DNA from: a virus
Strand: one strand, 5' to 3'
UHGV virus genome: UHGV-0116223
DNA: 23,152 bases
Part shown: positions 12 through 22,478 of the stretch, piece after piece
Numbering within the stretch: position 1 is the stretch's first letter
How the letters are laid out: every line of letters starts with the position of its first letter
Notes under the pieces: generated by a model
What the model was told of the DNA's origin: nothing
Databases searched by the model: none
What the model saw: only the letters and a program-made list of their open reading frames with translations
Translations under genes and position numbers: made by a program

Positions 12-39
12 TATCTGCCCCGTTTTATCGGGGCAGATA
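12..39 (-). terminator. hairpin terminator downstream of the ygaQ-like gene (possibly bidirectional)
   Basis: Perfect 11-bp inverted repeat tatctgccccg (12-22) / cggggcagata (29-39) with 6-nt loop, 10 nt past the TAA stop (50-52, minus strand); A/T-rich flank. Confidence 0.45.
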
Positions 40-49
40 TAACATTAAA

Positions 50-2302
50 TTATAAATAGAGATAGTTCGGCGGTTCTCCTGTTTTCCCTAAAAGAAGAGC
101 GCTACGCCCAGGAATATTGATATTTAGAGTTCCGCCTCTAAGCGTAAATACTTTACCAGGGGGGATAATTTTTCGGGTATTATTAATAATAATGTTAACG
201 CTATTACTCCCCATGTTTTTGTATATTCCAGGTTGCAATTTGTTAGGCCAGGTACCTTCAACTTCTTCGTTTCCTTTATTTATTATAACTAGTCCATCAT
301 GAGGAGAGTGATTAATGTTCACAGAATCCCCACGACTAAAGGCCAGAACGTTTTTAGTTGCAGATATACCCTCAAATGCGCTCCATATTCCTGCTTTATC
401 TATATATAATGCGTGGAATTCATTGTAGAGCTGCTGATAGGTAGAGCAACCTTTATTAAGCTACGCCTCACCGCCGACACGCGTGGACCCATCATAATTT
501 TTAATTTCAGTCGTTGATTTTAATACTTGGCCATCCCAGTAAACTAAAGGCCTGCTGAACGGCAGAGCGGCTATATATGCCATTGCTAATTGTTCATCTT
601 GTTGATGGTTAAATAGAAAGTCATTGAAAAGATTACCATTGTTAGGAAAATCGTGGTTAATGTTAATCAATATCCGTCTTTCTGATGGGATACTTGAGAT
701 TGTGGAACCCGGTTTTGATGCAAGGGTTTGAAGATCTCCACCAAATGAAAAGGCTTTTATCGTTTTCATGAGCAATGAAAAATCAATGGCGCTTAAATCA
801 TCTCTTTCATAAAGCAGTGATGACATTTGTTGTTCATCCAACTGACAAGTTACCAGATATTCCATGTAATTCATAACGGCTTTTTTATGATATTTTGGGT
901 TAAATAAGTTAGTATTGTGTAACCGCTCATTATAATTTTTAAGCGGTGGGGTTATTGATCTTTCTATTTGTTCATGTTTTGAGTGTTTTGCCGCATCATA
1001 ACGTAAACCTCGTACGCCATATTTTCGCATTTCACGAACGTATTGATTTTGCAACATAATAACCTGGTCACTTTTGGGTGTTGTTTTAGGCATTCCATTT
1101 AAACGCTTTTCTTTTAATGCATGGAGGTTTTCCCATTCATCCTTAGAGATGTTATCTTTACTTGCTTCGAAGTCTTTTGCAGTGAGATGTATATCTTCTG
1201 GATGGATTTGTTTACGTTCTTTTGTTACTGGATCTTTAATGAATGGAATCAAAACCTGACCTTGCTAATAGCCAGGGATACCACCTTCTATATCTTTACT
1301 GATCTTCGCTCGTATATCAGCAGAGGGATAATCCAGGTCATTTTTACCACTACCCCCAATTCCCATAAAGTTAAAGGTATAATCAGGAATGATATCGATA
1401 CCAAATTTTTTAGCATCTTTAACCAATGCAATAAAATCCTGCAAATCTCCCATTGGATTATGGATGGTACAAAGATCTTCGGGTTGATAAGCATGAAACC
1501 AGTAACCCTTTTCTTCTTCGGGAGTTTCTGGTCCGTCGGCGCGGAAAGTTGTCACTGGAGGGATTTGTATATACCCATAATGACAACGTGCAAATTCAGA
1601 CATATTTTCTCTGATCTGCTGGTAGGTGGCATTAAAAGCATGAAGAATCGCTTCGCCAGGTTTTTTGGGGGTGATGATTTCACATTGTGATTTCTGAACA
1701 GCAGTAAGAGATTTACGCTCAAGTGTTTGCCGTAGATGTTCTAGATTGATTAATATTTTAAATGTTTCTTGCTGTCCGGAAGGTGACGTCACGTTAATAT
1801 TATATACATCGGCTGCCAGCTCATAGTCAGGAATGTTAATAGCATATGCAACATATTTATCTTTTGGGGAAGGTTTGTCAGATATAATGTGGGTGAAATG
1901 TTCAGCACGACCATACTGATAAACACCGCTGTTATCACCTCTTTCAATCATTGTATCTCGTTGATAAACCTATGTTTTTCTTTCTCCTATCCTGTCTGGC
2001 GCTGTAATGCTACGCTGTGCTGCTTTATTCAACTCTCGGTAAGTTGTATCTGGAGAAAGGGAAATTTTATAATCGTTTTTTAACAGATCATTAATAACTT
2101 TTTCTGCGTGAAAAGTTGATATAATTTCTCTGTCTTTTAATCCTTGAGGGTAAACTCCACAAGAATTAATAATATTTGTTATACAGTTTAGATATTCTAA
2201 TGTATTTAATTTGGAATTTAGATCCCCGTCAGTAATGTTCCATGATAACAATGTGGGGTTGTCGATAGGTAAATTTCTGGGTCCTGGTTTTATAGAAAAC
2301 AT
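50..2302 (-). pseudogene. ygaQ: glycoside hydrolase family 13 (alpha-amylase-like) gene interrupted by three in-frame TAG codons
   Basis: Four ORF fragments (1970-2302, 1265-1951, 461-1252, 50-322) all in one frame. Separating stops at 1970-1972, 1265-1267 and 461-463 each read cta on the plus strand (TAG). GH13 signatures in correct order: HAFN...GYIQIPP, DIIPDYTFNFMG, GVRGLRYDAAKH, then AFSRG/VIINKG domain-C-like tail. GAGGAA RBS only before the ATG at 2302. Gene symbol from recalled K-12 synteny with ileY. Confidence 0.8.
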
Positions 2303-2861
2303 AATAAAGTTCCTCTAATGGTAGAGTAATATGATGTATACGGAAACATAAAAATGTTTAATTGTTGTGAAAGTAATTGCAAACAGATGTCCTACTTTTA
2401 TCCAATATTTATATGGAAAAGGATAATGCTTAAATCTGTTTTATTAATTATCGATGTGGTCTGGAGAGGCAACTGTCAAAAATCGCTCATACGAAACTAA
2501 TGATTAGCAGAATAAGATCTATGAAAGAATATATTGCTATACGAAGTTTATTTTTATGGAGTGAAAAGTAACAGATATCATAATGATGCGAAAACTCTTC
2601 AGCTAATGTAATAAAGTTATATTATTAGATACAAAATCATTACAAAGTATCATTGAATCGATGATAACTATAGATAGTGCTAATTATTAACATTTGCTTG
2701 TTGACTGCGAGTATCGACTTTGCGAATGGAGGCGGTGTCGGGTTTTATGTCGCGTGTAATCACGACCCAAGGTGAATGGGAACGCATAAAAATCTGTTAT
2801 TTACATCATATGATCATCATGTTTATTGCGTGGTTTATAAGTATTGTTATTGCACACTCAA

Positions 2862-2937
2862 GGCCCTTTAGCTCAGTGGTTAGAGCAGGCGACTCATAAT
2901 CGCTTGGTCGCTGGTTCAAGTCCAGCAAGGGCCACCA
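2862..2937 (+). tRNA. ileY: tRNA-Ile2 (anticodon CAU, lysidine-modified minor isoleucine tRNA), CCA encoded
   Basis: 76-nt cloverleaf: acceptor GGCCCTT/AAGGGCC, D-arm GCTC-AGTGGTTA-GAGC, anticodon loop CTCATAA (CAT at 2895-2897), T-arm GCTGG-TTCAAGT-CCAGC, 3' ACCA. Matches the E. coli ileX/ileY tRNA as I recall it; the acceptor stem variant is the ileY type. Confidence 0.92.
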
Positions 2938-3687: not shown

Positions 3688-4170
3688 ATGTTAGTTAGTA
3701 AAAGCAACGGATTTAACGCTAGCGCAGTTTTGGGTAGTGGAAGTTATAATGAAAATAAATCTTCTAAACACATGGAGCTACTAGCTCATAGTATTTTAAA
3801 ATTAATTTGTAAGGAAGCTGCATCAGAGACGTATCGCGGTGCTCTTGAAACTTTACAAAAAATGATGTCTGAATGTATATATCAAGAAGGCAACGCCTTT
3901 GTCATTATGGGAGCTGGAGAACAATTAAAACGTATTAAATATGAAGTTGGTGAAAATAACTTAAAGGTATTCAACGTACACTTTAATAATAATCACGAGT
4001 TAGTTAGTTCTGGTGAGCCTGACGTAATATGTTTAAGCAAGCAGGTCTGGGAAAATCTTCTCATTAAACTAAAGCTGGAAAACAATGAAAATGTGTTTTC
4101 TGAAACTAAAAAATTATCGAATAAAAATAATGCCGATCAGTTTTTTGAATGCGCTAAAAGAAATGAATAG
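3688..4170 (+). CDS. ypjC: hypothetical protein, low-GC island gene; N-terminal segment of a reading frame that continues through a TAG into 4270-5061
   Basis: ATG at 3688 preceded by GAGGAA RBS at 7-nt spacing; about 33% GC; ends at TAG 4168-4170. Gene symbol from recalled K-12 gene order. Confidence 0.6.
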   Translation: MLVSKSNGFNASAVLGSGSYNENKSSKHMELLAHSILKLICKEAASETYRGALETLQKMMSECIYQEGNAFVIMGAGEQLKRIKYEVGENNLKVFNVHFNNNHELVSSGEPDVICLSKQVWENLLIKLKLENNENVFSETKKLSNKNNADQFFECAKRNE

Positions 4171-4269
4171 AACCTTTTCGATAATATAAGAAAAAGTGAT
4201 TTTCATGTTGGTTTACTTAAGCCAAGTAGTACGCGTAGTGTTATTTTAGAAACGCCGCCAAATGTCTGT

Positions 4270-5061
4270 ATGGAATCACGTAATTCATATGAAAACAAAA
4301 TAGATGAGATTTCATCTTTGTCAGAGTCAAAGGAACACCCCATAGATATTCAAGAAAAAAAAGATGCGTTTGTGAATGAGTTCAAGGGGGTATTATTTGA
4401 TAAAAATACAAGGTCTTCAGAGCTTCTGTTTAATTTTTATGAGTGTTGCTATAAGTTTTTACCAAGAGCTCAGCCTCAAGATAAAATCGATAGCTATAAT
4501 TCAGCACTGCAAGCTTTTTCCATTTTTTGTTCATCTACGTTGACACATAATAATATAGGCTTTGATTTCAAATTATTTCCTGAAGTCAAGCTGTCTGGAG
4601 AACATCTTGAAACGGTATTCAAATACAAAAATGGCGATGATGTCCGGGAGATAGCCAAAATTAACATTACTCTCCAAAAAGAAGAGGGTGGTTTATATAA
4701 TTTACGTGGATTGGATTTTAAGGGGTGCTTCTTTTCTGGACAGAACTTCAGTAACTATGATATTCAATATGTGAACTGGGGAATGTCATTGTTTGATGTT
4801 GATACTCCGTGTATTTTTAATGCGCCTGCTTACAACAAGAGTAATGAAAAATCATTAAAACCTGTGAGCGAAAACGGTTTAAGTGGAGTATTGACTGATC
4901 GTAATAATAAAATAAAACTCATCACGGGCGTGGCACCATTCGATGATATTTTATTTATGGATGATGACTTTGATGATAGTTCCTCTGAGGATGATCCCGT
5001 TGAGAATAGTCCTGTTGTGACTAGTCCCGTTGTATCAAGTTCTAAAAGCAGTTTTCAATGA
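4270..5061 (+). CDS. ypjB: hypothetical protein (263 aa) with acidic Ser/Pro/Asp-rich C-terminal tail; same frame as 3688-4170 and lacks its own RBS
   Basis: ORF in the same phase as 3688 (offset 582 nt). The 99 nt between (4171-4269) are stop-free in frame. No Shine-Dalgarno before the ATG at 4270. Low GC. Confidence 0.6.
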   Translation: MESRNSYENKIDEISSLSESKEHPIDIQEKKDAFVNEFKGVLFDKNTRSSELLFNFYECCYKFLPRAQPQDKIDSYNSALQAFSIFCSSTLTHNNIGFDFKLFPEVKLSGEHLETVFKYKNGDDVREIAKINITLQKEEGGLYNLRGLDFKGCFFSGQNFSNYDIQYVNWGMSLFDVDTPCIFNAPAYNKSNEKSLKPVSENGLSGVLTDRNNKIKLITGVAPFDDILFMDDDFDDSSSEDDPVENSPVVTSPVVSSSKSSFQ

Positions 5062-5397: not shown

Positions 5398-5572
5398 CGT
5401 GGCAGGAGGTCCGGACTGAAAAAACTGGTCAGGACATCATCGGCAGGGAACGCACTGCTAGTCTGTAAACTGAACCGACTGGGGCGCAGTATGTGGCATC
5501 TTGTCGTGCTGTTGGAGGAGCTGTGCGAACGTGGTATTAACTTTCGTGCTCTGGCCCAATCTATATTTGCCC
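5398..5572 (+). pseudogene. pinH: serine DNA invertase (Pin/Hin/Gin family) fragment lacking the catalytic N-terminus
   Basis: Frame +1 translation [53 protein letters not shown] aligns with Pin [53 protein letters not shown]. Begins exactly where the IS3 fragment ends. Confidence 0.65.
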
Positions 5573-5972: not shown

Positions 5973-8900
5973 ATGAACAGGACCAGTCCCTATTATTGTC
6001 GCCGCTCAGTACTTTCCTTATTGATATCTGCCTTGATATATGCCCCGCCCGGGATGGCTGCCTTCACTACTAATGTTATTGGTGTGGTAAACGATGAGAC
6101 TGTAGATGGCAACCAAAAAGTGGATGAACGAGGTACAACAAATAACACTCATATTATCAACCATGGCCAGCAGAATGTTCATGGCGGGGTATCTAATGGA
6201 AGTCTTATTGAATCTGGTGGATATCAAGATATAGGAAGTCATAACAATTTTGTGGGGCAGGCTAATAATACAACCATTAACGGTGGCAGACAGTCAATTC
6301 ATGACGGGGGTATTTCCACAGGTACGACAATCGAGAGTGGCAATCAGGACGTTTATAAAGGGGGTATCAGCAATGGAACGACAATTAAGGGCGGTGCTTC
6401 ACGCGTAGAGGGAGGGAGTGCGAATGGAATACTCATTGATGGTGGTAGCCAGATAGTAAAAGTTCAAGGGCATGCTGATGGTACAACGATAAATAAGTCT
6501 GGCTCTCAGGACGTAGTACAAGGAAGTCTGGCAACGAACACAACCATAAATGGTGGTCGACAGTATGTTGAACAGAGCACAGTAGAAACAACAACCATTA
6601 AAAATGGCGGTGAGCAAAGAGTATATGAGAGCCGTGCGCTGGACACGACGATTGAAGGCGGAACTCAGTCTCTGAATAGTAAGTCAACGGCAAAAAATAC
6701 GCATATCTATTCTGGTGGCACGCAAATTGTTGATAACACCAGCACCTCGGATGTTATTGAAGTTTATTCTGGTGGCGTGCTTGATGTTAGTGGTGGTACG
6801 GCAACAAATGTTACCCAGCACGATGGTGCAATTTTAAAAACTAACACTAACGGTACGACGGTGAGCGGTACGAATAGTGAAGGTGCATTCTCCATCCACA
6901 ATCACGTGGCAGACAATGTGTTGCTGGAAAACGGTGGTCATTTAGACATAAACGCATATGGTTCGGCAAACAAGACGATTATTAAAGATAAAGGAACAAT
7001 GTCAGTTTTAACCAATGCTAAAGCTGATGCGACCCGAATAGATAATGGCGGGGTTATGGATGTTGCAGGAAACGCGACAAATACCATAATTAATGGTGGC
7101 ACACAGAATATTAATAATTATGGCATAGCCACAGGCACCAATATCAACAGCGGAACGCAAAATATCAAAAGCGGCGGGAAAGCTGACACAACAATTATAT
7201 CCTCCGGGAGCCGGCAGGTTGTTGAGAAAGATGGTACGGCAATTGGCAGCAATATTAGCGCCGGAGGCTCGCTGATTGTCTATACCGGCGGTATTGCACA
7301 TGGGGTTAACCAGGAGACGGGCAGTGCTTTAGTTGCCAACACGGGTGCAGGGACTGATATCGAAGGATACAACAAGCTCTCTCACTTCACTATTACCGGA
7401 GGGGAGGCTAATTATGTTGTGCTGGAAAATACCGGCGAACTGACGGTAGTGGCTAAAACCTCGGCGAAAAATACTACCATTGATACTGGCGGTAAGCTGA
7501 TTGTCCAGAAGGAGGCTAAAACAGATAGCACCAGACTTAATAATGGCGGCGTTCTGGAGGTTCAGGACGGTGGTGAGGCTAAGCATGTTGAGCAACAATC
7601 CGGCGGCGCATTAATTGCTTCCACGACCTCCGGAACACTTATCGAAGGAACCAACAGTTATGGTGATGCTTTCTACATCAGGAATTCAGAAGCTAAAAAT
7701 GTAGTGCTGGAAAACGCTGGCTCATTAACAGTCGTCACTGGTTCCCGCGCAGTTGACACGATTATTAATGCCAACGGCAAAATGGATGTTTATGGAAAAG
7801 ATGTTGGCACTGTACTCAATAGTGCTGGCACCCAAACAATATATGCCAGTGCCACTTCTGATAAAGCAAATATCAAAGGTGGCAAGCAAACGGTATATGG
7901 TTTAGCCACTGAAGCAAATATCGAAAGTGGTGAACAAATTGTTGATGGTGGGTCAACAGAGAAAACACACATCAATGGTGGCACGCAAACCGTTCAGAAT
8001 TATGGTAAGGCAATCAATACCGATATCGTCTCTGGCCTACAACAAATTATGGCAAACGGGACAGCGGAAGGTTCCATTATTAATGGGGGTTCACAGGTAG
8101 TTAATGAGGGCGGTCTGGCTGAAAACTCGGTGCTTAATGACGGCGGCACACTCGATGTGCGGGAGAAAGGCAGCGCAACGGGGATACAGCAGAGTAGCCA
8201 GGGCGCTTTGGTTGCAACCACCAGGGCGACGCGGGTCACAGGAACACGCGCGGATGGCGTCGCGTTCAGCATCGAGCAGGGTGCGGCGAACAATATCCTG
8301 CTGGCAAATGGCGGCGTGTTAACCGTGGAGTCAGACACCTCTTCTGACAAAACACAGGTCAATATGGGCGGACGGGAGATCGTCAAAACAAAAGCCACTG
8401 CGACAGGCACGACGCTCACCGGCGGTGAACAAATTGTCGAGGGTGTGGCGAATGAGACAACAATTAACGACGGCGGAATACAAACAGTTTCAGCTAACGG
8501 AGAGGCAATAAAAACAAAGATCAATGAAGGCGGTACGCTGACAGTCAACGATAATGGCAAAGCGACAGATATCGTCCAGAACAGCGGTGCCGCTCTCCAG
8601 ACGAGCACGGCTAACGGTATTGAAATCAGCGGTACTCACCAGTACGGTACTTTTTCCATTTCCGGCAATTTAGCGACCAATATGTTGCTGGAAAATGGCG
8701 GTAATTTATTGGTATTAGCAGGTACCGAAGCTCGCGACTCCACGGTTGGCAAGGGTGGGGCAATGCAAAACCTGGGTCAGGACTCCGCCACAAAGGTTAA
8801 CTCTGGCGGGCAATATACCCTTGGGCGGTCAAAAGATGAGTTTCAGGCTCTGGCCCGGGCAGAAGATCTCCAGGTCGCTGGCGGTACGGCAATCGTCTAC

Positions 8901-10553
8901 GCAGGTACGCTGGCGGATGCATCGGTCAGTGGCGCGACAGGAAGCCTGTCGTTAATGACGCCACGGGATAATGTTACGCCAGTTAAACTCGAAGGGGCGG
9001 TCCGGATTACCGATAGCGCGACATTGACTCTGGGAAATGGCGTCGATACCACGCTTGCCGACCTGACGGCTGCCAGCCGGGGCAGTGTCTGGCTTAACAG
9101 CAATAATTCCTGTGCAGGTACCAGCAACTGCGAATATAGAGTAAACAGTTTGCTACTCAACGACGGTGATGTTTATTTGTCAGCACAAACAGCAGCGCCT
9201 GCCACAACTAACGGTATCTACAATACGCTGACAACCAATGAACTTTCCGGTAGCGGTAATTTCTACCTGCATACCAACGTTGCAGGCTCCCGGGGCGATC
9301 AACTGGTCGTCAACAACAACGCCACTGGTAATTTTAAAATCTTTGTTCAGGATACCGGCGTCAGCCCACAGTCTGACGACGCGATGACGCTGGTGAAAAC
9401 AGGGGGAGGGGATGCTTCGTTTACGCTGGGCAATACCGGCGGTTTCGTTGATCTTGGGACCTATGAGTATGTCCTGAAAAGTGACGGCAACAGCAACTGG
9501 AACCTGACCAATGATGTCAAACCCAACCCGGACCCCATCCCAAATCCAAAGCCAGACCCAAAACCCGATCCAAAGCCAGACCCAAATCCAAAACCAGACC
9601 CTACTCCCGATCCAACGCCGACACCCGTTCCGGAGAAACGCATTACGCCTTCTACGGCAGCCGTACTCAATATGGCAGCAACATTACCGTTGGTATTTGA
9701 TGCTGAGCTAAACAGTATTCGCGAGCGGTTGAACATAATGAAAGCGAGTCCACACAACAATAATGTCTGGGGGGCGACGTATAACACCCGTAATAATGTC
9801 ACCACCGATGCGGGTGCCGGGTTTGAGCAGACGCTGACCGGAATGACAGTGGGGATCGACAGCCGTAATGATATTCCTGAAGGAATTACCACGCTAGGCG
9901 CTTTTATGGGCTATTCCCATTCACATATCGGTTTTGATCGCGGAGGACATGGCAGTGTGGGCAGTTATTCTCTGGGCGGCTATGCCAGTTGGGAACATGA
10001 AAGTGGTTTCTATCTGGACGGTGTCGTGAAGCTGAACCGTTTTAAAAGTAACGTAGCAGGTAAAATGAGCAGCGGTGGAGCCGCCAATGGCAGTTACCAC
10101 AGCAACGGGCTGGGCGGTCACATTGAAACCGGGATGCGATTTACCGATGGTAACTGGAACCTGACGCCGTATGCATCGTTAACGGGGTTCACCGCTGATA
10201 ACCCCGAATATCATTTATCCAATGGCATGAAATCGAAATCAGTCGATACCCGCAGTATATATCGTGAACTGGGCGCAACGCTGAGTTACAACATGCGTCT
10301 GGGGAACGGTATGGAAGTTGAGCCGTGGCTGAAGGCGGCTGTGCGCAAAGAATTTGTCGATGATAACCGGGTGAAAGTGAATAGTGACGGTAATTTCGTC
10401 AATTATTTGTCGGGCAGACGTGGAATATACCAGGCAGGTATTAAAGCCTCATTCAGCAGTACGTTAAGCGGGCATCTTGGGGTGGGGTATAGCCATAGTG
10501 CCGGTGTGGAATCCCCGTGGAACGCGGTAGCTGGTGTGAACTGGTCGTTCTGA
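5973..10553 (+). CDS. ypjA: AIDA-I-type autotransporter adhesin (1526 aa): extended signal peptide, beta-helical passenger, Pro-rich linker, C-terminal beta-barrel
   Basis: MKF-MNRTSPYYCRRSVLSLLISALIYA extended signal peptide (ATGs at 5964 and 5973, GAGG upstream). About 19-aa degenerate repeats (TTINGGxQxV...GG). PNPDPIPNPKPDPKPDP linker. C-terminal aromatic-rich barrel ending ...AGVNWSF. TGA at 10551-10553. Length 1526 aa from 5973 matches recalled K-12 ypjA. Confidence 0.9.
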   Translation: MNRTSPYYCRRSVLSLLISALIYAPPGMAAFTTNVIGVVNDETVDGNQKVDERGTTNNTHIINHGQQNVHGGVSNGSLIESGGYQDIGSHNNFVGQANNTTINGGRQSIHDGGISTGTTIESGNQDVYKGGISNGTTIKGGASRVEGGSANGILIDGGSQIVKVQGHADGTTINKSGSQDVVQGSLATNTTINGGRQYVEQSTVETTTIKNGGEQRVYESRALDTTIEGGTQSLNSKSTAKNTHIYSGGTQIVDNTSTSDVIEVYSGGVLDVSGGTATNVTQHDGAILKTNTNGTTVSGTNSEGAFSIHNHVADNVLLENGGHLDINAYGSANKTIIKDKGTMSVLTNAKADATRIDNGGVMDVAGNATNTIINGGTQNINNYGIATGTNINSGTQNIKSGGKADTTIISSGSRQVVEKDGTAIGSNISAGGSLIVYTGGIAHGVNQETGSALVANTGAGTDIEGYNKLSHFTITGGEANYVVLENTGELTVVAKTSAKNTTIDTGGKLIVQKEAKTDSTRLNNGGVLEVQDGGEAKHVEQQSGGALIASTTSGTLIEGTNSYGDAFYIRNSEAKNVVLENAGSLTVVTGSRAVDTIINANGKMDVYGKDVGTVLNSAGTQTIYASATSDKANIKGGKQTVYGLATEANIESGEQIVDGGSTEKTHINGGTQTVQNYGKAINTDIVSGLQQIMANGTAEGSIINGGSQVVNEGGLAENSVLNDGGTLDVREKGSATGIQQSSQGALVATTRATRVTGTRADGVAFSIEQGAANNILLANGGVLTVESDTSSDKTQVNMGGREIVKTKATATGTTLTGGEQIVEGVANETTINDGGIQTVSANGEAIKTKINEGGTLTVNDNGKATDIVQNSGAALQTSTANGIEISGTHQYGTFSISGNLATNMLLENGGNLLVLAGTEARDSTVGKGGAMQNLGQDSATKVNSGGQYTLGRSKDEFQALARAEDLQVAGGTAIVYAGTLADASVSGATGSLSLMTPRDNVTPVKLEGAVRITDSATLTLGNGVDTTLADLTAASRGSVWLNSNNSCAGTSNCEYRVNSLLLNDGDVYLSAQTAAPATTNGIYNTLTTNELSGSGNFYLHTNVAGSRGDQLVVNNNATGNFKIFVQDTGVSPQSDDAMTLVKTGGGDASFTLGNTGGFVDLGTYEYVLKSDGNSNWNLTNDVKPNPDPIPNPKPDPKPDPKPDPNPKPDPTPDPTPTPVPEKRITPSTAAVLNMAATLPLVFDAELNSIRERLNIMKASPHNNNVWGATYNTRNNVTTDAGAGFEQTLTGMTVGIDSRNDIPEGITTLGAFMGYSHSHIGFDRGGHGSVGSYSLGGYASWEHESGFYLDGVVKLNRFKSNVAGKMSSGGAANGSYHSNGLGGHIETGMRFTDGNWNLTPYASLTGFTADNPEYHLSNGMKSKSVDTRSIYRELGATLSYNMRLGNGMEVEPWLKAAVRKEFVDDNRVKVNSDGNFVNYLSGRRGIYQAGIKASFSSTLSGHLGVGYSHSAGVESPWNAVAGVNWSF
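9520..9630 (+). repeat. imperfect tandem 12/24-bp repeats encoding the (P-x-P-D/K) autotransporter linker
   Basis: ccaaagccagacccaaa occurs at 9546-9562 and 9570-9586, embedded in a run of cc(a/c)(a/g)a(c/t)cc(a/g)ga(c/t) units. Confidence 0.6.
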
Positions 10554-10743: not shown

Positions 10744-10818
10744 TATTTGCAATGCGTTGATTTATAACGAATAAAATTTAAAGTTGGTTCTTACGGCTCT
10801 TTTGCGGATATTTTACTA

Positions 10819-11637
10819 TCAATTCGTAGTCCTGCCATATTTACGTTTTTTCTTGCGGTTTGTTTCTGGTTTCTTCTCTCGGTTATTGTCTACTTTTTCA
10901 TGTATATCCATATTGAACCAAGAAGCATGCGAAACCTCACTTAATGGAAATATGATACTGGTATCAACTCCATCAAGATCGTTGTAATCATTTGAAAACA
11001 GGACCCTTAGTGTGTCCTTGTCCCTGTAACCAGATATGATTGGGCTAATAGAAATTTCAAGGTTAGGGCCTTGTTTTTCGTTTGGCTCACTAATCATGTT
11101 AACTGTTCCGACATATACTTTGCGGCATTTCAGGCTTATCAGTACCGGTCTGTTTGTAGTCGCTGAATCAAAGAATAGCTGACCAAGTGAGCCATCAGAC
11201 AACAGTTTTTCCAACTCATTAAGCCTGATTAGTTGCTTTGCGAAATTGATAGAAATTGCATTATTGGATGCAGAACTAATAGTTTTTGCTGCCACAAACA
11301 TACGAAATTTGCATATCTGCAACCAAATAAAAGCAACTCCACAAGTCGCCACTGATAGCAGGATGAGCCATGATGTTATCCTGTTTTCTTTAGGGTCTGC
11401 ACTACCATCAATAAGATGTGATACCCATGTGACCAGTGTAAGGCTTGGTATAAAGTACTTGGTTGCATACGCCAGCACGACTGCAACAATGAACGAGTAC
11501 ACACCGTACGTGGCCACCTTCATATAGAGAAGCTGGCCGTCGTAACGGTGGAGTCGATAGAATAATTTGATGTTATGGGGCGATGTAACCAGTAAGGATC
11601 CACTTACTAAAAGTGGAATGATCAGCAATGCAAACAT
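10819..11637 (-). CDS. hypothetical membrane protein (272 aa): three N-terminal TM helices, soluble C-terminal domain, Lys/Arg-rich tail; second gene of cargo operon
   Basis: ATG at 11635-11637 lies 3 nt after the TAA of the upstream gene (translational coupling). About 38% GC versus about 55% in phage structural genes. Hydrophobic segments at residues 1-17, 40-62 and 85-107. No motif I can assign. Confidence 0.7.
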   Translation of the reverse strand: MFALLIIPLLVSGSLLVTSPHNIKLFYRLHRYDGQLLYMKVATYGVYSFIVAVVLAYATKYFIPSLTLVTWVSHLIDGSADPKENRITSWLILLSVATCGVAFIWLQICKFRMFVAAKTISSASNNAISINFAKQLIRLNELEKLLSDGSLGQLFFDSATTNRPVLISLKCRKVYVGTVNMISEPNEKQGPNLEISISPIISGYRDKDTLRVLFSNDYNDLDGVDTSIIFPLSEVSHASWFNMDIHEKVDNNREKKPETNRKKKRKYGRTTN

Positions 11638-11640
11638 TTG

Positions 11641-11889
11641 TTAGTCGTCATTGTCCATTGAGTTAGCTTTAGCGGCTGCAACAGCTTTTGCATCCTGCTC
11701 GACGAATTTTCTAGCTGCTTTCCTAAGCTGAGTGATTTTTTCTGGGTCAGTAGATGGGTCTACAATAACTGCACCACGCCCTACGACCTTGATGTTTTTA
11801 ACACCAGATTTGTTCAAACGATCGGCCATGGCTTGTCCGCCTTTGACCAAATCATTCAGCCCAAACATCTTCATGACTAGTTCTGACAT
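11641..11889 (-). CDS. hypothetical small soluble protein (82 aa); first gene of cargo operon
   Basis: ATG at 11887-11889 with AGGAGG RBS at 5-nt spacing (plus 11895-11900). Hydrophilic, Ala/Lys-rich, acidic C-terminus (MDNDD). No recognisable domain. Confidence 0.7.
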   Translation of the reverse strand: MSELVMKMFGLNDLVKGGQAMADRLNKSGVKNIKVVGRGAVIVDPSTDPEKITQLRKAARKFVEQDAKAVAAAKANSMDNDD

Positions 11890-12184
11890 AAAGACCTCCT
11901 TTCAGTCCCCCCAATGTATCCTTTTGAGGCATTTATTGCTCCCCGCAGAACGGGGCGCGGGATTTTACCATAATCTACGTACTGGCTCCAAGATTTCCCG
12001 CGTGTTCCTAGTACTAGGACAGCTGCCTGAGTACCAAGTTCACCTATAACATATATGCTTGGTTCGAATTTTTGCAAGGTAAAAAGTGCCTTATGTTTAA
12101 GTATGTATGATGTGGATATGACGAACATAACCACATCACAAATAACTTTTTATCAGGTTTCAGTGGCTATTTGTTCGGGCAGCA

Positions 12185-13360
12185 TCAAGCCTGTTTTGTA
12201 TCATTAGTATTTTTAGCGGTATGTCCGTCATATGCAGCAAGGTAACTGCCATAGTGACGAAATAGCATTTCTGGTCCCTTATGGCCCATCTGGCCTGCAA
12301 GCCAGAACAGGTTCGCACCACGGCTGATATGGCTGGTGGCGAATGTATGCCTGGTCTGATATGGGTTACGGTACCGGATACCTGCTTTACGTAAGGTTGG
12401 TATCCACGCTTTTTTCCTTATCGCATCGGCGCTGGCCCACGGTTTGTTTGTCTTTGGATCTTCAAAGACAGTAGCATCCTTCATGAATGTAAATGGCTTC
12501 TGATTTATCAGCGCCAACATTGCCTCTTCTGTCAGTTCAACTTTACGAGTACCGGCTTTTGTCTTTGTTCCTTTGATAACACCGACAACACTTGCGCTCT
12601 GGACATGGGCAGTTTTTCCAACAAAGTCGATATCACGCCATCGAAGGGCACATAATTCAGAACTACGCAGGCCTGTATGTATAGCGAACCGGAACAGATT
12701 TTCCCATTGTTTGTTTCCGGCTGCTGCTAGTAATGCATCAACTTCTGCTGGTGATAGCGGATCAACCACGTAGCTGCTTTCTGCTTCTGACTTATCACTT
12801 TGGTAGCGCGAAGCAGTTACCAACGATACGGGGTTAATTTGAAGTACCCCATCGGTTACGGCTTCATCAAGTGCTGACCGCAGGAAAGATAACTGGTTGC
12901 GAATTGTTTTTGAGGTCGTTTTCTGGCTTTGAATCCACGCTTTCAGGATTGCTGGTGTTAATTCACTTGCAGGGCAAATGTGGAGTGAGGCTAACGCACT
13001 ACGGCATTTTTTATAACCACCAATCGTAGAGGGTGAAAGTTTTCTCGTTTCGCAGATTTCAAGGTATTCGTCCAGGTACATTTTTACCGTTTTGCCTGCA
13101 GCAGCATTACCAAAAATTTTCAAACGAGCAGAACGGGGAAAATATTCCGCATAAATGAATGTTCCCCTTTCGATCTTATTATGAATTTCGCCGAGTGTGC
13201 GCTCGGCGTATTTTATGTTCTTTGGTATTACTTCCAGATTGGAAAGAGGCTCACGACATTTAACTCCTTTGTAGGTGAAAGTTATATTGATCGTTTCGCC
13301 CTGGCGGTGTTTCCTGATTGTTACGCCGCGCGGTAGTTTGAGCAGTTTTGTCTGGCCCAT
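12185..13360 (-). CDS. phage tyrosine integrase (site-specific recombinase)
   Basis: 391 aa. Catalytic-domain motifs TGLRSSELCALRWRDID, RHTFATSHISRG, LAGQMGH and RHYGSY (Arg-His-Arg-Tyr set). GAGG RBS before the ATG at 13360. Overlapped at its 5' end by the excisionase-like gene. Confidence 0.93.
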   Translation of the reverse strand: MGQTKLLKLPRGVTIRKHRQGETINITFTYKGVKCREPLSNLEVIPKNIKYAERTLGEIHNKIERGTFIYAEYFPRSARLKIFGNAAAGKTVKMYLDEYLEICETRKLSPSTIGGYKKCRSALASLHICPASELTPAILKAWIQSQKTTSKTIRNQLSFLRSALDEAVTDGVLQINPVSLVTASRYQSDKSEAESSYVVDPLSPAEVDALLAAAGNKQWENLFRFAIHTGLRSSELCALRWRDIDFVGKTAHVQSASVVGVIKGTKTKAGTRKVELTEEAMLALINQKPFTFMKDATVFEDPKTNKPWASADAIRKKAWIPTLRKAGIRYRNPYQTRHTFATSHISRGANLFWLAGQMGHKGPEMLFRHYGSYLAAYDGHTAKNTNDTKQA

Positions 13361-13527
13361 TTTGCAACCTCACTAAGATCAATCCACCTCTCCTTAACGC
13401 CTTCAACCTTTAAAACCTGAACACCTTCACGCCAAACACCGCGCTGTACACGTTTGTTTATTGCTTCAGGAGTTTCGCCAGTTTCTTTGCAATAAGTTGA
13501 GATTGGAACACAATCGAGGTTCAGCAT
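13321..13527 (-). CDS. putative excisionase / small DNA-binding protein (about 68 aa)
   Basis: Small basic ORF immediately upstream of int and overlapping its start by 40 nt. GGAG RBS 6 nt before the ATG at 13525-13527 (the table start at 13539 is a GTG further upstream). Call rests on position and size only. Confidence 0.5.
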   Translation of the reverse strand: MLNLDCVPISTYCKETGETPEAINKRVQRGVWREGVQVLKVEGVKERWIDLSEVAKWARQNCSNYRAA

Positions 13528-13586
13528 ATGTTTCTCCACTTAGCCCGCTGCACACGGGCAGTAATATCAAATTCCAGTCCTGATAA

Positions 13587-13802
13587 TTAATTTTGTTCCC
13601 TGGTTGCTACCTGTTTTATTGGCCTGATGCTGTCCAGTAGCAGACGGCGACGCATGTTAGGTGCCCCCCAACGGTAACCAGTCTTTTTGTCGTAGGATTC
13701 ACAACGTCCGGCAACCCAGGACGTTTCAGTGGAATGTAATTTCATCCGCTTTTCACCGTCTCGGGTGATAACAATTCCTGTATGAGTTTTTATCACGCTC
13801 AT
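13587..13802 (-). CDS. hypothetical phage early protein (71 aa)
   Basis: ATG overlaps the stop of the upstream gene (ATGA, 13799-13802), indicating translational coupling. Confidence 0.5.
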   Translation of the reverse strand: MSVIKTHTGIVITRDGEKRMKLHSTETSWVAGRCESYDKKTGYRWGAPNMRRRLLLDSIRPIKQVATREQN

Positions 13803-14161
13803 TTCTTAGTCTCTGGTGCTTTCGGCATTACTGCCCAGTGAGTGATATTGACGTTTTCAAGGTCCCCGACCTGAAATGTCCACTGCCATTCTCCGGTTTC
13901 TTTTTGTCCCCAGGTGTACCAGAGAGAACGCCAGCCAATCAGCCAGCCTTCTCCGTTAGCATCAAATAACAGAACACTTTCATTTGCTGGTGGCAGTTCA
14001 GCTGACACTGGTATTATTTTGCTTTCCAGTGCCGCACATTTAGCTTCAAGCGCGTCGAATTTACGTACCAGGTACTCAGCATTTGTTTCGTTCACTTTCA
14101 GATCTCGCGGTACACATTTCCCGCGAAGAAACCCTTCCATTTCGAAAACATTCATGCGCAT
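13799..14161 (-). CDS. phage protein with DUF551-like C-terminus (120 aa; YfdS-like)
   Basis: C-terminal WxxGxxxTGEWQW...THWAVMPKAPE resembles the DUF551 signature common in lambdoid early regions. GGAG RBS. Length matches recalled CPS-53 YfdS. Confidence 0.6.
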   Translation of the reverse strand: MRMNVFEMEGFLRGKCVPRDLKVNETNAEYLVRKFDALEAKCAALESKIIPVSAELPPANESVLLFDANGEGWLIGWRSLWYTWGQKETGEWQWTFQVGDLENVNITHWAVMPKAPETKK

Positions 14162-14688
14162 TTGCGTAACTCCGATAATTCGTTAAAGCGTTCCATAAAC
14201 ATCCCGTAGGCATGGCCTGGAGCCAGTGGAATCACGTTGAACATCTCTGTTGCCGGGATACCTTCCAGCACAGGCCAGAAAGAGCCATCATCAAGCCCGA
14301 GATCGCGGCGTTCGGTTGCCAGCATGATGAGATCGGCATATTTCACTGGCGTGCTCATAACAGGAGGTAACCCGTATTTCTCACGGATTACGGCGTCTAT
14401 TTTTTCTTCCATCCGTTTATAGTCAGGAAGAAGTCGTTTCAGTGGTGCGGGGATGTCTTGGCAATACGCTTCTGTTGCATCATGCATTAACGCTTCAAAA
14501 GCAAATTCCTGCGGCACCAGCTGGCTGCAAAGAACCGCATGTTGGGCGACGCTGTAGAAGTGCGAAAGATGACCGGCAAAGCGACAGATATTTGAAAGGG
14601 AAACCGCGATATCGTTAATATCGATGTCGTCTTTATTTATCCTGTCATAATAAAAATGCTTCCCGGAAAAAGTTTTAATAAATGACAT
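14152..14688 (-). CDS. HD-domain phosphohydrolase (YfdR/YfbR-like 5'-deoxynucleotidase family), about 178 aa
   Basis: H...HD metal-binding motifs (RFAGHLSHFYSVAQH, LMHDATEAY). Probable start is the ATG at 14686-14688 with GGAG RBS (the table ORF starts 9 codons earlier). Confidence 0.75.
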   Translation of the reverse strand: MSFIKTFSGKHFYYDRINKDDIDINDIAVSLSNICRFAGHLSHFYSVAQHAVLCSQLVPQEFAFEALMHDATEAYCQDIPAPLKRLLPDYKRMEEKIDAVIREKYGLPPVMSTPVKYADLIMLATERRDLGLDDGSFWPVLEGIPATEMFNVIPLAPGHAYGMFMERFNELSELRKCA

Positions 14689-14781
14689 TTTGTTCTCCAC
14701 GTATATGCGCTGCACCGCGCTGAATTCTGGTAAAAAGAATCCCTCACCATCCGGCGATTATTGAGTAAATTACGTTTCCAT

Positions 14782-14803
14782 AAATGCCCCCGCAGGGGCA
14801 TTT
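14782..14803 (-). terminator. hairpin between the YfdQ-like and HD genes
   Basis: Perfect 9-bp stem aaatgcccc/ggggcattt with 4-nt loop, 13 nt downstream of the stop at 14816; T-rich on the minus-strand 3' side. Confidence 0.45.
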
Positions 14804-14815
14804 GCAGTAATGAAA

Positions 14816-15640
14816 TCAGGCGGTGAAAGTACCAATAAAGGTTTCTACTTTGCTGTCCTTGAATTTCTCAACAAGCAGATCACGAAATTCGTTAGCCATT
14901 TCTTCCTGCACCGCCTCCAGCTGAATAATGCGCAGAACCAGTACAGGACGATCGCCAGTGATAATACTGAGGCGTAATTTAAACGGACGTTCTTTCAGAC
15001 CTTCAAACGGAACGCATTTAAATTCAAATGCCACTGGCATAATGTCTTTGGTCTTCGCTTCGACAGACTCCATCAGGGAGCGTTTGCCGCTGAAGTCATT
15101 ATCTTCAAAATCAGCGGTCTGGTTTGCTTCAATCGTGATTTTACGGACAGCCGCAGCCGCTTTTGTTGCCTGAATAGCGTCACCATTAGCATCAAAGCCC
15201 ACAAGATAGTCGGCCCAGTCTTCAATCCATTCTGCCAGTGACTTCTGGGAGTTACGCTCGCCGTTAACAGACAACAGAGCAGAGAACGGTGCTGTCTTTT
15301 TCAGTTTGAGTGTGGCGGTGTTATCTGCGTGACCTGGTTCATCAATAGTACCCAGGTTAAGCACACTGACGGCACGCATATTATCAGCATCGATAAAGCA
15401 GCGGGTGCCTTCATCTGCAAGATCTTTAGAATAACGGGTAAAGTCATCGATGCTGGCAGTGGAAAGCGCACCACGGAAACGGAAGCGATTTAAATTAAAT
15501 TTTTCCAGATCATGAATGCGGAAATTCTCAGGCAATGCCACAGCATCGGCACCAATCTTACTGATAATTTCATTAACACCCTGAGCAGAAATAAGGGCAT
15601 GGATTTGATTAATTGCGGTTGCGTCTAAGTTCTGAGACAT
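14816..15640 (-). CDS. phage early protein, YfdQ-like (274 aa)
   Basis: 274-aa ORF with GAGGA RBS. Same length and neighbourhood (next to the HD protein) as recalled CPS-53 YfdQ. Homology is recalled, not computed. Confidence 0.65.
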
Positions 15641-15705
15641 AATAAGTCCTCACTATATAAAGATATTCAGTGATGAGATAAATAATCAGTTAATTAAAAA
15701 CGATA

Positions 15706-16068
15706 TTAACGACCTGCTGCGCGGAGTTTTCCGTCAGGTTCACCGGCAAGAGTCAGTAACTGTCCCTGGTCTTCCTGCAGAATAGTCAGGCGACCACCGC
15801 GATTGACATACATCGGCGTTTCGGTGGTGTCTTCTTCGGAAATTTTCCCGCGGTTAGTCGGGCGAACATATGAGAGTTTGTGTTTGATTTTCACACGGTT
15901 CTCATCAAATGGTTCGATTTCCAGGTTGAGTGAGACCTTACCTTTGGTTTTCGTGTTCATCACACCGGAAGCGACTTCACTGAGAACTGCGCCGATTTTG
16001 GTTTCAAATACGCCGCCGTCCAGCTCCCCGATAAATGCCTGCACATCAGTACTGCGTTCGCTAGCCAT
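15706..16068 (-). CDS. phage early protein (120 aa from the ATG at 16068; YfdP-like)
   Basis: GAGGAG RBS 7 nt upstream of the ATG at 16066-16068 (MASERSTD...). Last early gene before the lysis cassette. Confidence 0.6.
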   Translation of the reverse strand: MASERSTDVQAFIGELDGGVFETKIGAVLSEVASGVMNTKTKGKVSLNLEIEPFDENRVKIKHKLSYVRPTNRGKISEEDTTETPMYVNRGGRLTILQEDQGQLLTLAGEPDGKLRAAGR

Positions 16069-16116
16069 TTTGCTGCTCCTCATCATATCGACCCTGCAAG
16101 GCCGATTAGTTTCTCC

Positions 16117-16205
16117 ACAAAACAGAGAAGAACACCTGCGGTGGCAGCCGCCCGGATGGATTGGGTTATGAGCCCGTCGTCCGGTGATGCTCTTCTCTGT
16201 TTTGT
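16117..16205 (+). promoter_or_regulatory. 15-bp perfect inverted repeat (59-nt spacer) bracketing the holin start codons
   Basis: acaaaacagagaaga (16117-16131) and tcttctctgttttgt (16191-16205) are exact reverse complements. Flanking cacc (16133-16136) / ggtg (16183-16186) extend the stem. Encloses the ATGs at 16156 and 16168. Confidence 0.45.
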
Positions 16206-16485
16206 AAAAAGGACGGTATTCTACATAGCAACAGCAGCAGATCTGAGTGCATCGCGCCGACTGGCATATTTTATCGTGTCATATATTGCCGGGATCCTTT
16301 GCTCTGGGTTGGTTGGCTCCAAGCTGGCGCACTTGACCGGATACAGTGATAAACCTCTGGATGCTATTGGTGCCGTAATCGTCTCTGCTTTAGCCGTTAA
16401 AATCCTGACGTTCCTGAATAATCAGGATATCGGCTCGCTGGTGGCGCTCATAACGCGCCGGGGAGGTTCAGGTGGAGCTAAATGA
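16156..16485 (+). CDS. holin (lambda S-like), possible dual-start motif M-D-W-V-M
   Basis: Small protein with 2-3 TM segments and charged C-terminus. C-terminal DIGSLVALITRRGG resembles lambda S DSIGSLIKRFAAKKAG. In-frame ATGs at 16156 and 16168. First gene of the lysis cassette. Confidence 0.7.
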   Translation: MDWVMSPSSGDALLCFVKRTVFYIATAADLSASRRLAYFIVSYIAGILCSGLVGSKLAHLTGYSDKPLDAIGAVIVSALAVKILTFLNNQDIGSLVALITRRGGSGGAK

Positions 16486-16753
16486 CCCGACAGCAACTAT
16501 AAATGCGCTGTTATGTGCTTGTGTTGTTATTACTCTGATGTTTTATCGTCGTGGTTATTCGCGGCATCGTCCTTGGGTTTCACGTTTAGCCTGGCTGATT
16601 ACTGTTACATACAGTGCTGTTCCGTTGGCCTATCTCTGTGGGATTTATCCCCATTCCTCATGGCCCATTATCGTGGCGAACACTATTTTTCTTTCCGTGC
16701 TGGTGGCCGTCAGAGGCAACGTTGCACGTCTGGTTGATCATCTGAGGCACTAA
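16472..16753 (+). CDS. lysis-cassette membrane protein (93 aa, 3 TM); possible second holin or antiholin
   Basis: GTG start with GGGAGG RBS at 6-nt spacing; overlaps the holin stop; ends 1 nt into the endolysin ATG. Three hydrophobic helices. Confidence 0.5.
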   Translation: MELNDPTATINALLCACVVITLMFYRRGYSRHRPWVSRLAWLITVTYSAVPLAYLCGIYPHSSWPIIVANTIFLSVLVAVRGNVARLVDHLRH

Positions 16754-17370
16754 TGAACCAACAATTATTTCAAAAGGCGGCTGGTATTAGCGCCGGGCTG
16801 GCTGCGCGCTGGTTTCCGCACATTGATGCTGCAATGAAAGAGTTTGGAATCACAGCAGTTAACGATCAGGCCATGTTCATTGCACAAGTTGGGCATGAAT
16901 CTGCTGGTTTTACCTCGCTGGTGGAAAGCTTCAACTACTCGGTAGACGGGCTGAAGAAAACCTTTAGTAAACGCCTGACGCCTTATCAGTGTGAAATGCT
17001 GGGGCGTGTCGATGGTAAGCAGGTAGCCCACCAGCCGCAAATAGCCAATCTGGTTTATGGTGACCGCATGGGGAATAACAGCCAGGGTGACGGCTGGAAA
17101 TATCGCGGTCGTGGCCTGCTTCAAATCACCGGCCGCGAGAACTACGCCAAATGCGGTGCGGCGCTGAAGTTGGATCTGATCAGCACACCAGAGTTGCTGA
17201 CACAGGAGAAACATGCAGCCCGTTCTGCTGCATGGTATTTCACATTACGTGGTTGTCTGATGTATTCAGGTGATGTTGTCCGTGTAACGCAGATCATCAA
17301 CGGTGGCCAGAATGGACTGGCTGACAGAAATAGTCGTTATAACAAAGCGCGGGCGGCGTTGCTGGTATGA
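16753..17370 (+). CDS. endolysin, glycoside hydrolase family 19 (chitinase-like lysozyme)
   Basis: [12 protein letters not shown] and [13 protein letters not shown] motifs typical of GH19 phage endolysins. GAGG RBS. Stop overlaps the Rz start (ATGA). Confidence 0.85.
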
Positions 17371-17903
17371 CAGCGGTCTTTGCTTTTGTTCAGGCGCGGT
17401 GGAAAACAATCATTGTTTTGCTGATGTTGGCTGGTGCATTTCTTGCCGGGAACATCTGGAGTGAGCGGGGCTGGCAAAAGAAGTGGGCTGACCACAATAG
17501 CATGGAATCTTCACAGGAAGCGAACGCGCAGACTGCCGCACGCTGGATTGAACAAGGGCGCATAATTGCCCGTGATGAGGCTGTAAAAGATGCACAAGCA
17601 CAAGCCGCTAAATCTGCTGCCACTGCTGCTGGCCTGTCTGCCACTGTTAGCCAGTTGCGTACCGAAGCAACAAAGCTTGCCGCACGCCTGGACGCCGCAA
17701 AGCACACCGCTGATCTTGCCGCTGCCGTCCGAAGCAAAACAACCGACGCCGACGCCGGAATGTTCGCCGACATGCTCGGAGATATTGCAGCAGAAGCTAA
17801 ACGTTATGCTGGAATCGCTGACGAACGCTACACCGCCGGGATGACGTGTGAACGTATTTACGACTCGTTGAGAGAGTCAAATAACGCTATCCCCCACAAT
17901 TGA
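17367..17903 (+). CDS. i-spanin (Rz-like)
   Basis: N-terminal TM helix ([17 protein letters not shown]) followed by Ala/Gln/Lys-rich coiled-coil-like region. Directly follows the endolysin gene. Confidence 0.75.
17590..17844 (+). CDS. o-spanin lipoprotein (Rz1-like) embedded in the +1 frame of Rz
   Basis: Signal peptide [23 protein letters not shown] with lipobox L-A-S-C, then Pro-rich mature region. Entirely nested within 17367-17903. Confidence 0.7.
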
Positions 17904-17969
17904 TTTTTTATCATATTCGAACGACTATGAAGGGTGTAAACAATTATAATCCAGTGATGAATTTTTCAA

Positions 17970-18245
17970 ATGTCAAAGCAAGGATATGCAGTGAGTGGTC
18001 ATAGTGATGGTTTAGCAGATATTTTGAGCATTGTAATTGTATTAGCAGTGGAACATTGGATTATCGCATCTCTCATAGTTGGTTTGATTATGTATCTAGT
18101 GGGGGCGAGCATAAACGAAAATGCTCAGACAAATGCCGGTGCCATTGCATCGGGAATCATAGGGGTATGTGGTCAATTTATTTTTGGTTTTGGCGTTCTG
18201 GCTAGCATTATTGGGATTGTTAAATTCATTTGGACCCACACCTGA
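17970..18245 (+). CDS. small glycine-zipper membrane protein (91 aa), moron
   Basis: Two hydrophobic helices with GxxxG-type repeats (GAIASGIIGVCGQFIFGFGVLASIIG). About 40% GC. Perfect TATAAT at 17945-17950 upstream; hairpin plus T5 terminator downstream. No clear SD (a GTG at 17991 is an alternative start). Confidence 0.55.
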   Translation: MSKQGYAVSGHSDGLADILSIVIVLAVEHWIIASLIVGLIMYLVGASINENAQTNAGAIASGIIGVCGQFIFGFGVLASIIGIVKFIWTHT

Positions 18246-18267
18246 CAGCATCACTTTAGTCAATCAT

Positions 18268-18291
18268 AGCCTCGCAATAGCGGGGCTTTTT
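18268..18291 (+). terminator. intrinsic terminator after the moron gene
   Basis: Stem agcctcgc / gcggggct (8 bp, one G-U pair), loop aata, followed by ttttt. Confidence 0.55.
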
Positions 18292-18309
18292 AACAACTGA
18301 GGTATGAGC

Positions 18310-18507
18310 ATGACAGTAGTTCTTACAGCTAAGCAGATTGAAGACCTAGCAGCATTCGCGAAAGAAGATGGTCAGCCCCAATACACCATCACCACTGGTA
18401 CAATCCCGGAATTCGAAGCGGATGATGGCGAGATTATCCCTGAATACACAGGGCTGATCGCTTACTCAGAGTCACTTGAGCACGGTGTATTGCAACTCGA
18501 CGATTAG
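18310..18507 (+). CDS. small strongly acidic protein (about 65 aa)
   Basis: GAGG at 18299-18302, 7 nt before the ATG at 18310. About 14 Asp/Glu against 2 Lys and 1 His (estimated net charge about -12). Confidence 0.55.
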   Translation: MTVVLTAKQIEDLAAFAKEDGQPQYTITTGTIPEFEADDGEIIPEYTGLIAYSESLEHGVLQLDD

Positions 18508-22475: not shown

Positions 22476-22478
22476 TCC

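Follow-up and report, generated by a model that had tools for sequence, protein, structure and literature searches.

When a long bacterial reading frame is interrupted by amber codons and by nothing else, is it an ordinary pseudogene, or is it a gene that has been tolerated through suppression or read-through of its stops? The question is raised by the minus strand of positions 50-2302 in the 23,152-nucleotide stretch of DNA analysed here (the window), where 751 codons lie in one frame, without a frameshift, and are interrupted only by TAG, at codons 111, 346 and 614. In-frame stops without other decay, it has been argued, can mark prokaryotic genes that are decoded by read-through (PMC7918605). 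A preliminary description of the window, made from its letters, recognised a GH13 alpha-amylase-like gene, considered both a young nonsense pseudogene and tolerance through amber suppression, and held three nonsense hits without a single indel to be statistically unusual.

In this paper we conclude, with a probability of about 0.9, that the frame is ygaQ, a pseudogene in decay, in its K-12-type allele, that it has taken three independent TGG to TAG hits, and that its all-amber appearance is mainly the product of mutation bias. The pseudogene status of ygaQ is already known and annotated, and the case is an ordinary one, such as a textbook might choose to illustrate how a gene of E. coli decays step by step. 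What is added here is the ancestral codon at each stop, which is Trp, the nested and recombined distribution of the stops in the population, and the result that an amber-only pattern needs no suppression to be explained.

Methods

The frame was retranslated from the window and ygaQ alleles were aligned (25 alleles). One contig allele, L025, was left out, as its 11 small indels suggest an error-prone assembly. Allele frequencies were obtained by scanning 5426 complete genomes with allele-specific 55-mers, in which a central mismatch blocks megablast seeding. The polarity of the changes was taken from the intact alleles and from the conservation of Trp in the E. albertii and 35%-identical homologues; a contig scan for a nucleotide-level outgroup gave E. 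coli and Shigella-level sequences only.

The ygaQ locus

By its position between glaH(csiD)-lhgO-gabD and the ileY tRNA, the locus is E. coli ygaQ, which RefSeq/PGAP annotates in K-12 and in CFS3292 as pseudo, 'alpha amylase C-terminal domain-containing protein; internal stop'. Over its first 10.7 kb the window is collinear with CFS3292 (99.9% identity); the match ends at position 10731, and the CFS3292 annotation carries over to the window no further than that. The 2.6 kb around ygaQ match 4127 of the 5426 complete E. coli genomes. The K-12 pseudogene, which was once split into ygaQ/ygaR and further fragments, lies in the same place and has the same three TAGs, and the K-12 record NZ_CP010439.1 is 3 nt apart from the window in ygaQ, with an identical pseudo/internal-stop annotation. 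There is no substantive difference from K-12 in ygaQ itself, whereas the window represents a non-K-12 strain with another prophage downstream. The stretch is AT-rich (37% GC) and adjoins the ileY tRNA; ygaQ has been viewed as a gene that came by horizontal transfer and is silenced by H-NS, with spurious promoters inside it (PMC7229825). The features of the region are as follows.

12..39, minus strand: terminator-like stem-loop of 11 pairs, just past the ygaQ stop codon (consensus match only)
50..52, minus strand: native TAA stop codon of ygaQ (translation)
50..2302, minus strand: ygaQ pseudogene, full-length 751-codon GH13-like frame, K-12-type triple-amber allele (translation, RefSeq/PGAP)
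461..463, minus strand: amber codon 614, formerly TGG (Trp), G to A; domain C lost (comparison with intact alleles)
1265..1267, minus strand: amber codon 346, formerly TGG (Trp), G to A (comparison with intact alleles)
1970..1972, minus strand: amber codon 111, formerly TGG (Trp), G to A (comparison with intact alleles)
2311..2315, minus strand: GAGGA Shine-Dalgarno, 8 nt upstream of the ATG at 2300-2302 (direct reading of the sequence)
2862..2937, plus strand: ileY tRNA, anticodon CAT, not a suppressor (ARAGORN; RefSeq tRNA-Ile)
3688..5061, plus strand: ypjC pseudogene (YpjCB family, DUF5507+DUF5508), with one amber (intact alleles, Pfam)

Retranslation agreed to the base with what had been described for positions 50-2302, that is, one phase, three TAGs and no frameshift. 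The four mechanical ORF fragments (1970..2302, 1265..1951, 461..1252 and 50..322) have a common phase, and the codons which join them (VYQRDT, QGQV and the 46 codons at 323-460) are free of stops, as had also been reported. At exactly 2253 nt the frame is equal in length to the intact alleles and therefore holds no indel. The first ATG (2302) had been singled out as the only start with a ribosome binding site, and this is so: GAGGA stands there, against weak AAGG/GAGA-like matches only at the internal starts. On the other side of ileY, the ypjC frame is broken solely by the TAG at 4168-4170 of the plus strand, a CAG to TAG change by C to T, which makes all four disruptions around ileY amber, as was first observed from the letters. 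The DUF5507/DUF5508 Pfam matches come from intact ypjC alleles, and the 55-mer specific to the ypjC TAG allele was found in 1435 genomes.

Intact alleles and ancestral codons

Intact ygaQ alleles of 750 aa (WP_000491427.1, WP_001521106.1) are present at the same position in other strains, with carriers that include EC17CM2, CUVET16-819, O145:H28 12E115, UID2309220009, 190693, 3347558 and a Shigella flexneri isolate, and the cluster of full-length YgaQ at 90% identity has 15,629 member sequences. Pairwise dN/dS between intact alleles is 0.08-0.25. Intact ygaQ is a real gene under purifying selection in some E. coli lineages.

The alignment of orthologues, which the preliminary description had proposed as a check, both yielded these intact alleles and identified the sense codon at each TAG position. 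All intact alleles have TGG (Trp) at codons 111, 346 and 614, and each stop therefore goes back to a G to A transition of the second base in a Trp codon. Trp111, Trp346 and Trp614 are conserved in the E. albertii homologue, and W614 is invariant as far as the 35%-identical homologue. Two routes to a nonsense pseudogene had been suggested; G to A at TGG accounts for three of three stops in ygaQ, and C to T at CAG applies to the stop in ypjC.

Among young singleton substitutions the ratio of nonsynonymous to synonymous changes (N:S) is 16:6 in pseudogene alleles and 23:22 in intact alleles (Fisher p = 0.12); the neutral ratio by sites is 3.7:1, and the pseudogene singletons are near to it. The contrast has the direction expected of decay but is suggestive only, with low power. 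The derived changes of the window allele are mostly synonymous (19 S : 9 N). Split at the TAGs they fall into segments of 4S:2N, 7S:4N, 6S:1N and 2S:2N, counts that are too few to inform, and most of them predate inactivation or came by recombination.

Distribution of the stops

TAG614 is present in 2403 of the 5426 complete genomes (44%), TAG346 in 1082 and TAG111 in 1041. By this spread in the population the pseudogene is not especially young, and the word 'young' in the preliminary description should be given up. The stops are combined in the following ways.

TAG614 as sole lesion: RM10466, PEC165, strain 361
TAG346 + TAG614: P50
TAG111 + TAG614: contig L021
TAG111 + TGA108 + 1-bp deletion, with Trp at 346 and 614: CAVP773
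TAG111 + TAG346 + TAG614: the window and K-12-type alleles, including contigs L001, L022 and L023

Sites 111 and 346 are found in all four combinations and so fail the four-gamete test, and the history of the gene is therefore not purely clonal. Over nt 1-620 CAVP773 has 2 differences from the window, and over nt 1101-2253 it has 38; L021 has 0 differences over nt 1-620 and from there on is nearer to PEC165. The failed four-gamete test together with these mosaic SNP blocks rules out purely clonal, one-by-one accumulation; intragenic recombination shuffled separately arisen stops among strains. TAG614, the most widespread stop, was probably the first inactivating event, W346* and W111* would have come later on TAG614-bearing alleles, and homologous recombination inside ygaQ has since redistributed the three stop sites, with the order of the mutations blurred by that recombination.

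Other lesions of ygaQ

The preliminary description had expected ordinary decay to show itself, at the same locus in other strains, in assorted indels and other kinds of stop, and this is what the population contains. O157:H7 and 26_141088 alleles have an independent CAG413 to TAG change at nt 1237. Three 1-bp frameshifts were found: +T after nt 1640, on a TAG614 background, in 4 of the 25 sampled alleles, +A after nt 1672 in one otherwise intact allele, and a deletion at nt 1193. CAVP773 has TGA at codon 108 along with a 1-bp deletion. Across E. coli there are IS903B and IS3 insertions at ygaQ and IS3-associated 5' truncations; the locus is less than 80% present in 767 of the 5426 genomes and absent from 1299. 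The sampled events come to 5 independent nonsense changes versus at least 6 indel or IS events, and the lack of an indel in the window allele is not remarkable.

Mutation spectrum and the chance of an all-amber allele

Intact ygaQ has 324 single-base routes to a stop, of which 52% give TAA, 23% TGA and 25% TAG. The window allele has 31 derived substitutions (on the coding strand, 13 G>A, 6 C>T, 7 A:T>G:C and 5 transversions), 19 of which are thus transitions of the G:C>A:T type. In the pseudogene-group alleles 3.5 nonsense changes are expected per 62 other derived substitutions and 4 were observed; the nonsense count fits neutral decay. With the strand-specific spectrum of the locus itself, the probability that a nonsense change is TAG is 0.30. 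That three of three are TAG has a probability of 0.016-0.053, according to the mutation model, and this spectrum gives 0.027; the probability of three TGG>TAG changes is approximately 0.0015 with the empirical spectrum, and that of any identical codon-to-stop triple is approximately 0.01, all of these values being post hoc. To call three nonsense hits without an indel statistically unusual was thus an overstatement, as the count is as expected and the TAG type is mildly unusual (P ~0.03).

On the plus strand of the window, each of the four ambers around ileY is a C>T change. GC skew is positive on this strand, and in K-12 the ygaQ region lies at ~2.78 Mb on the map, in the left replichore; from the two together the plus strand would be the leading replication strand. 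In a minus-strand gene, plus-strand C>T can give a stop only at TGG, with TAG or TGA at equal chance, and nine TGG>TGA routes are equally open beside TGG>TAG. If C>T were confined strictly to this strand, three TAGs in three would still have a probability of 0.125. The asymmetry between G>A and C>T is not significant (p = 0.06-0.08) and is suggestive only. We regard the all-amber look as a modest coincidence that follows mainly from a G:C>A:T, possibly strand-biased, spectrum, the rest being chance.

A Dcm hotspot was considered for the three TAGs of the window and rejected, since the mutated nt 332, 1037 and 1841 are outside CCWGG; the CCWGG sites in ygaQ start at nt 16, 643, 966, 1027, 1236, 1446, 2051, 2071, 2143 and 2191. 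In lacI, Coulondre and Miller reportedly found amber hotspots at Dcm (CCAGG) sites, which arise through 5-methylcytosine deamination. The CAG413>TAG change of O157:H7 and 26_141088, on the inner C of CCAGG, is of this kind and is the sole one here to fall on a Dcm site; unlike the lacI hotspots, the three ygaQ TAGs of the window and the ypjC TAG lie outside CCWGG.

Suppression and other explanations

Could ygaQ still be functional, its ambers being decoded, now or until recently, by a suppressor tRNA or by leaky termination, so that TAG alone is tolerated? That four of four disruptions around ileY are TAG, that the ygaQ frame has no indel and that an all-TAG outcome has a probability of only ~0.03 under neutral mutation all speak for this, as does the argument of PMC7918605, whose candidates the window allele resembles in having in-frame stops and no frameshift. 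It is unlike them in that related ygaQ alleles have frameshifts, IS elements and deletions, in that its young substitutions look neutral and in that its stops are three in series. The +T1640 frameshift stands on the TAG614 background, and IS insertions and truncations are common at ygaQ. Three serial read-throughs would also multiply three small probabilities, and W614 is invariant in the family, so Gln or Tyr inserted there would probably give no functional rescue. The check for suppressor tRNAs with anticodon CUA, proposed in the preliminary description and made here on the window and on the complete genomes, went against suppression as well. In the window, its prophage part included, ARAGORN found ileY as the only tRNA and no suppressor. 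Among the 5426 genomes a probe for the supE-type glnV(CTA) allele matched 158, and the 60 matches listed were all K-12 laboratory derivatives, while a probe for the supF-type tyrT allele matched one laboratory strain; the supE-type matches include C600, DH5alpha, DH1 and J53, which act as a positive control. These 158 genomes and 1 genome contrast with the 1041, 1082 and 2403 carriers of the three TAGs, and with 158 supE genomes against 1041 TAG111 genomes at least 880 TAG111 carriers must be without supE. With suppressor alleles so rare, a frameshift on the TAG614 background and assorted lesions at the locus, tolerance through suppression or read-through is unsupported, and we consider it very improbable.

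The K-12 'MG1655' record NZ_CP010439.1 was tried as an example of a suppressor-free carrier and was discarded, as it itself matches the supE-type probe.

The stops are probably real terminators, without read-through, so that at most a 110-aa N-terminal fragment would be made, and it may be asked whether the TAG111 allele is in fact a new small gene, in which this fragment is selected and the downstream stops are debris. When the 110-aa W3110 YgaQ fragment was over-expressed from an ASKA plasmid it reportedly gave mitomycin C resistance and had flap-ssDNA nuclease activity (PMC4725251), the fragment retains the GAGGA ribosome binding site, and TAG111, with its 1041 genomes, is common. However, the evidence on the fragment is from plasmid over-expression only, ygaQ is held to be silenced by H-NS and to have spurious intragenic promoters, and the first 215 residues contain no Pfam domain and are outside the GH13 catalytic region. 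Moreover, of the three stops TAG111 has spread least, and the allele in which it arose had probably lost its function by then, and in CAVP773 TGA108 falls within the fragment itself. A new small gene is therefore unlikely. Still less credence can be given to one clustered hypermutation event, of the cytosine-deaminase type and on a single strand, that made several ambers around ileY together. The four ambers are all C>T on the same plus strand, inside 3.7 kb, and the three ygaQ hits share a 5'-C[C]A context, but the CCA context is the mere complement of TGG, three of three TAGs are outside CCWGG Dcm sites, and neither the 5'-CC context (APOBEC-like or other deaminase) nor another context signature is enriched; for 5'-CC among 34 G:C>A:T changes p is 0.15, or 0.44 when the three TAGs are left out. 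The stops also differ in frequency and occur singly and paired across strains, and the ambers therefore arose at different times, so that a single event is most improbable.

Independent TGG to TAG hits on a gene in decay remain the preferred reading of the window. A bolder proposal, to which we give very little weight, is that wild E. coli might sporadically carry amber suppressors and that H-NS-silenced pseudogenes with TAG only, such as ygaQ and ypjC, form a re-expressible reservoir in which selection favours amber-only alleles. In a weaker variant, replication-strand-biased cytosine deamination might systematically kill lagging-strand genes via Trp to stop changes.

The intact YgaQ protein

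The 110-aa YgaQ that has been treated as a 'native protein' should be viewed with caution, as those residues are the N-terminal stub of a GH13-like enzyme of 750 aa which is intact and constrained elsewhere in E. coli. This intact enzyme, almost restricted to Escherichia, is the more interesting object. The YgaQ family is narrow and consists of E. coli/Shigella sequences, an E. albertii homologue (59% identity) and one metagenomic protein (35% identity), and the ancestral product is predicted to be a 750-aa, nearly Escherichia-specific and distant member of GH13, the alpha-amylase family.

The GH13 assignment made from the letters was right, though the similarity is distant. In Pfam, PF02806 (domain C) scores 27.6 bits, above its gathering cutoff of 21.2, and PF00128 (the catalytic domain) scores 21.0 bits, just under its cutoff of 22; the YgaQ family profile matches, with E = 2e-18, the alpha-amylase of Bacillus subtilis (PDB 1BAG/1UA7), which by sequence is its nearest GH13 relative of solved structure. 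The two have in common the beta1-beta3 region, a G-x-R-x-D-A-A-K-H nucleophile motif, N-H-D and a C-terminal all-beta domain, and YgaQ differs in its extra N-terminal ~215 aa, without a known domain or an obvious signal peptide. An AlphaFold2 model of intact YgaQ, made from a 4-sequence alignment, is poor, with a mean pLDDT of 44, and is confident only in domain C (~640-745) and not over the (beta/alpha)8 barrel expected of GH13.

Of the conserved regions of GH13, region I (D-x-x-x-N-H) was not found in YgaQ in its full form: D303 and N311 are kept, and the His is replaced by F312 (DIIPDYTFNF versus DAVINH). In region III the HMM alignment sets E208 of 1UA7 against N465, so that the position of the acid/base Glu is ambiguous; the invariant E481 (YMEYL) would be a plausible alternative by spacing, and an FGE motif is present in the 35%-identical homologue and absent from E. 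coli. Region IV (N-H-D, with the Asp that stabilises the transition state) is represented by N549-H550-D551, which are invariant and lie opposite ESHD of 1BAG, in a low-scoring stretch only. Region II (G-x-R-x-D-x-x-K-H, with the catalytic nucleophile Asp) is present as GLRYDAAKH, its Asp being D436; the motif does not vary within the family and lies opposite GFR(F/Y)DAAKH of PDB 1BAG and 3DC0.

Independent inactivation of ygaQ and its intact product

Among the other sequences carrying the ygaQ locus, L005 (strain 26_141088) and L013 (O157:H7) have a CAG to TAG change at codon 413 of the gene (nt 1237). The mutated base is precisely the inner C of a Dcm site (CCAGG), the classical amber hotspot through deamination of 5-methylcytosine. 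The window retains CAG at the equivalent site, and TAG413 in L005 and L013 is an independent inactivation event.

Intact YgaQ, as encoded by allele L003:3053-5302 (minus strand), is an orphan GH13-like enzyme. Its N-terminal region of about 215 aa (residues 1-215) has no match in Pfam or PDB and no evident signal peptide, and the whole family scarcely extends beyond Escherichia; a single metagenomic relative has 35% identity.

Features around ileY and the prophage

Features of the window other than ygaQ
1121-1690, plus strand: ATG ORF of 189 aa, antisense within ygaQ
2862-2937, plus strand: ileY tRNA (ARAGORN, Met with anticodon CAT; RefSeq, tRNA-Ile)
3688-5061, plus strand: ypjC pseudogene (YpjCB family, DUF5507 and DUF5508), with a single amber TAG at 4168-4170
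5398-5565, plus strand: recombinase (pin-like) gene fragment, from collinearity with the annotation of E. coli CFS3292
5973-10553, plus strand: ypjA/ehaD autotransporter adhesin gene, also from collinearity with CFS3292
10800-23152 (right half): prophage with integrase, yfdP/Q/R-like genes, small and large terminase subunits, portal, GH19 endolysin and DUF2514

The antisense ORF lies in AT-rich DNA and is probably spurious. The tRNA is ileY, which is read as Ile after lysidine modification. The ancestral codon at the ypjC amber is CAG; intact ypjC alleles of 449-484 aa are present in O157, O145 and several further strains, and the amber allele was found in 1435 of the 5426 complete E. coli genomes in the collection. 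By eye, the C-terminal half of ypjC looks pentapeptide-repeat-like. The pin-like fragment and ypjA/ehaD show more remnants of island decay beside ileY, and beyond them the prophage stands in place of the post-ypjA sequence of K-12 and CFS3292; at least 80% coverage of it in a single place was found in no complete genome of the collection.

Irregular database records

The supE-type glnV(CTA) allele, an amber suppressor, is present in three records labelled K-12 MG1655 (NZ_CP010438.1, NZ_CP010439.1 and NZ_CP010440.1; matches H69-H71); reference MG1655 is not known to carry it. None of the 60 supE-type matches listed has a PGAP feature under the suppressor tRNA. L021 (JAEWTL010000056.1) is a contig labelled 'MAG: Bacillota bacterium'; its sequence is ordinary ygaQ DNA of E. 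coli, pointing to contamination during binning. L025 (CP178302.1, E. coli ECMA0423) has 11 small indels within ygaQ alone, suggesting assembly errors rather than biology.
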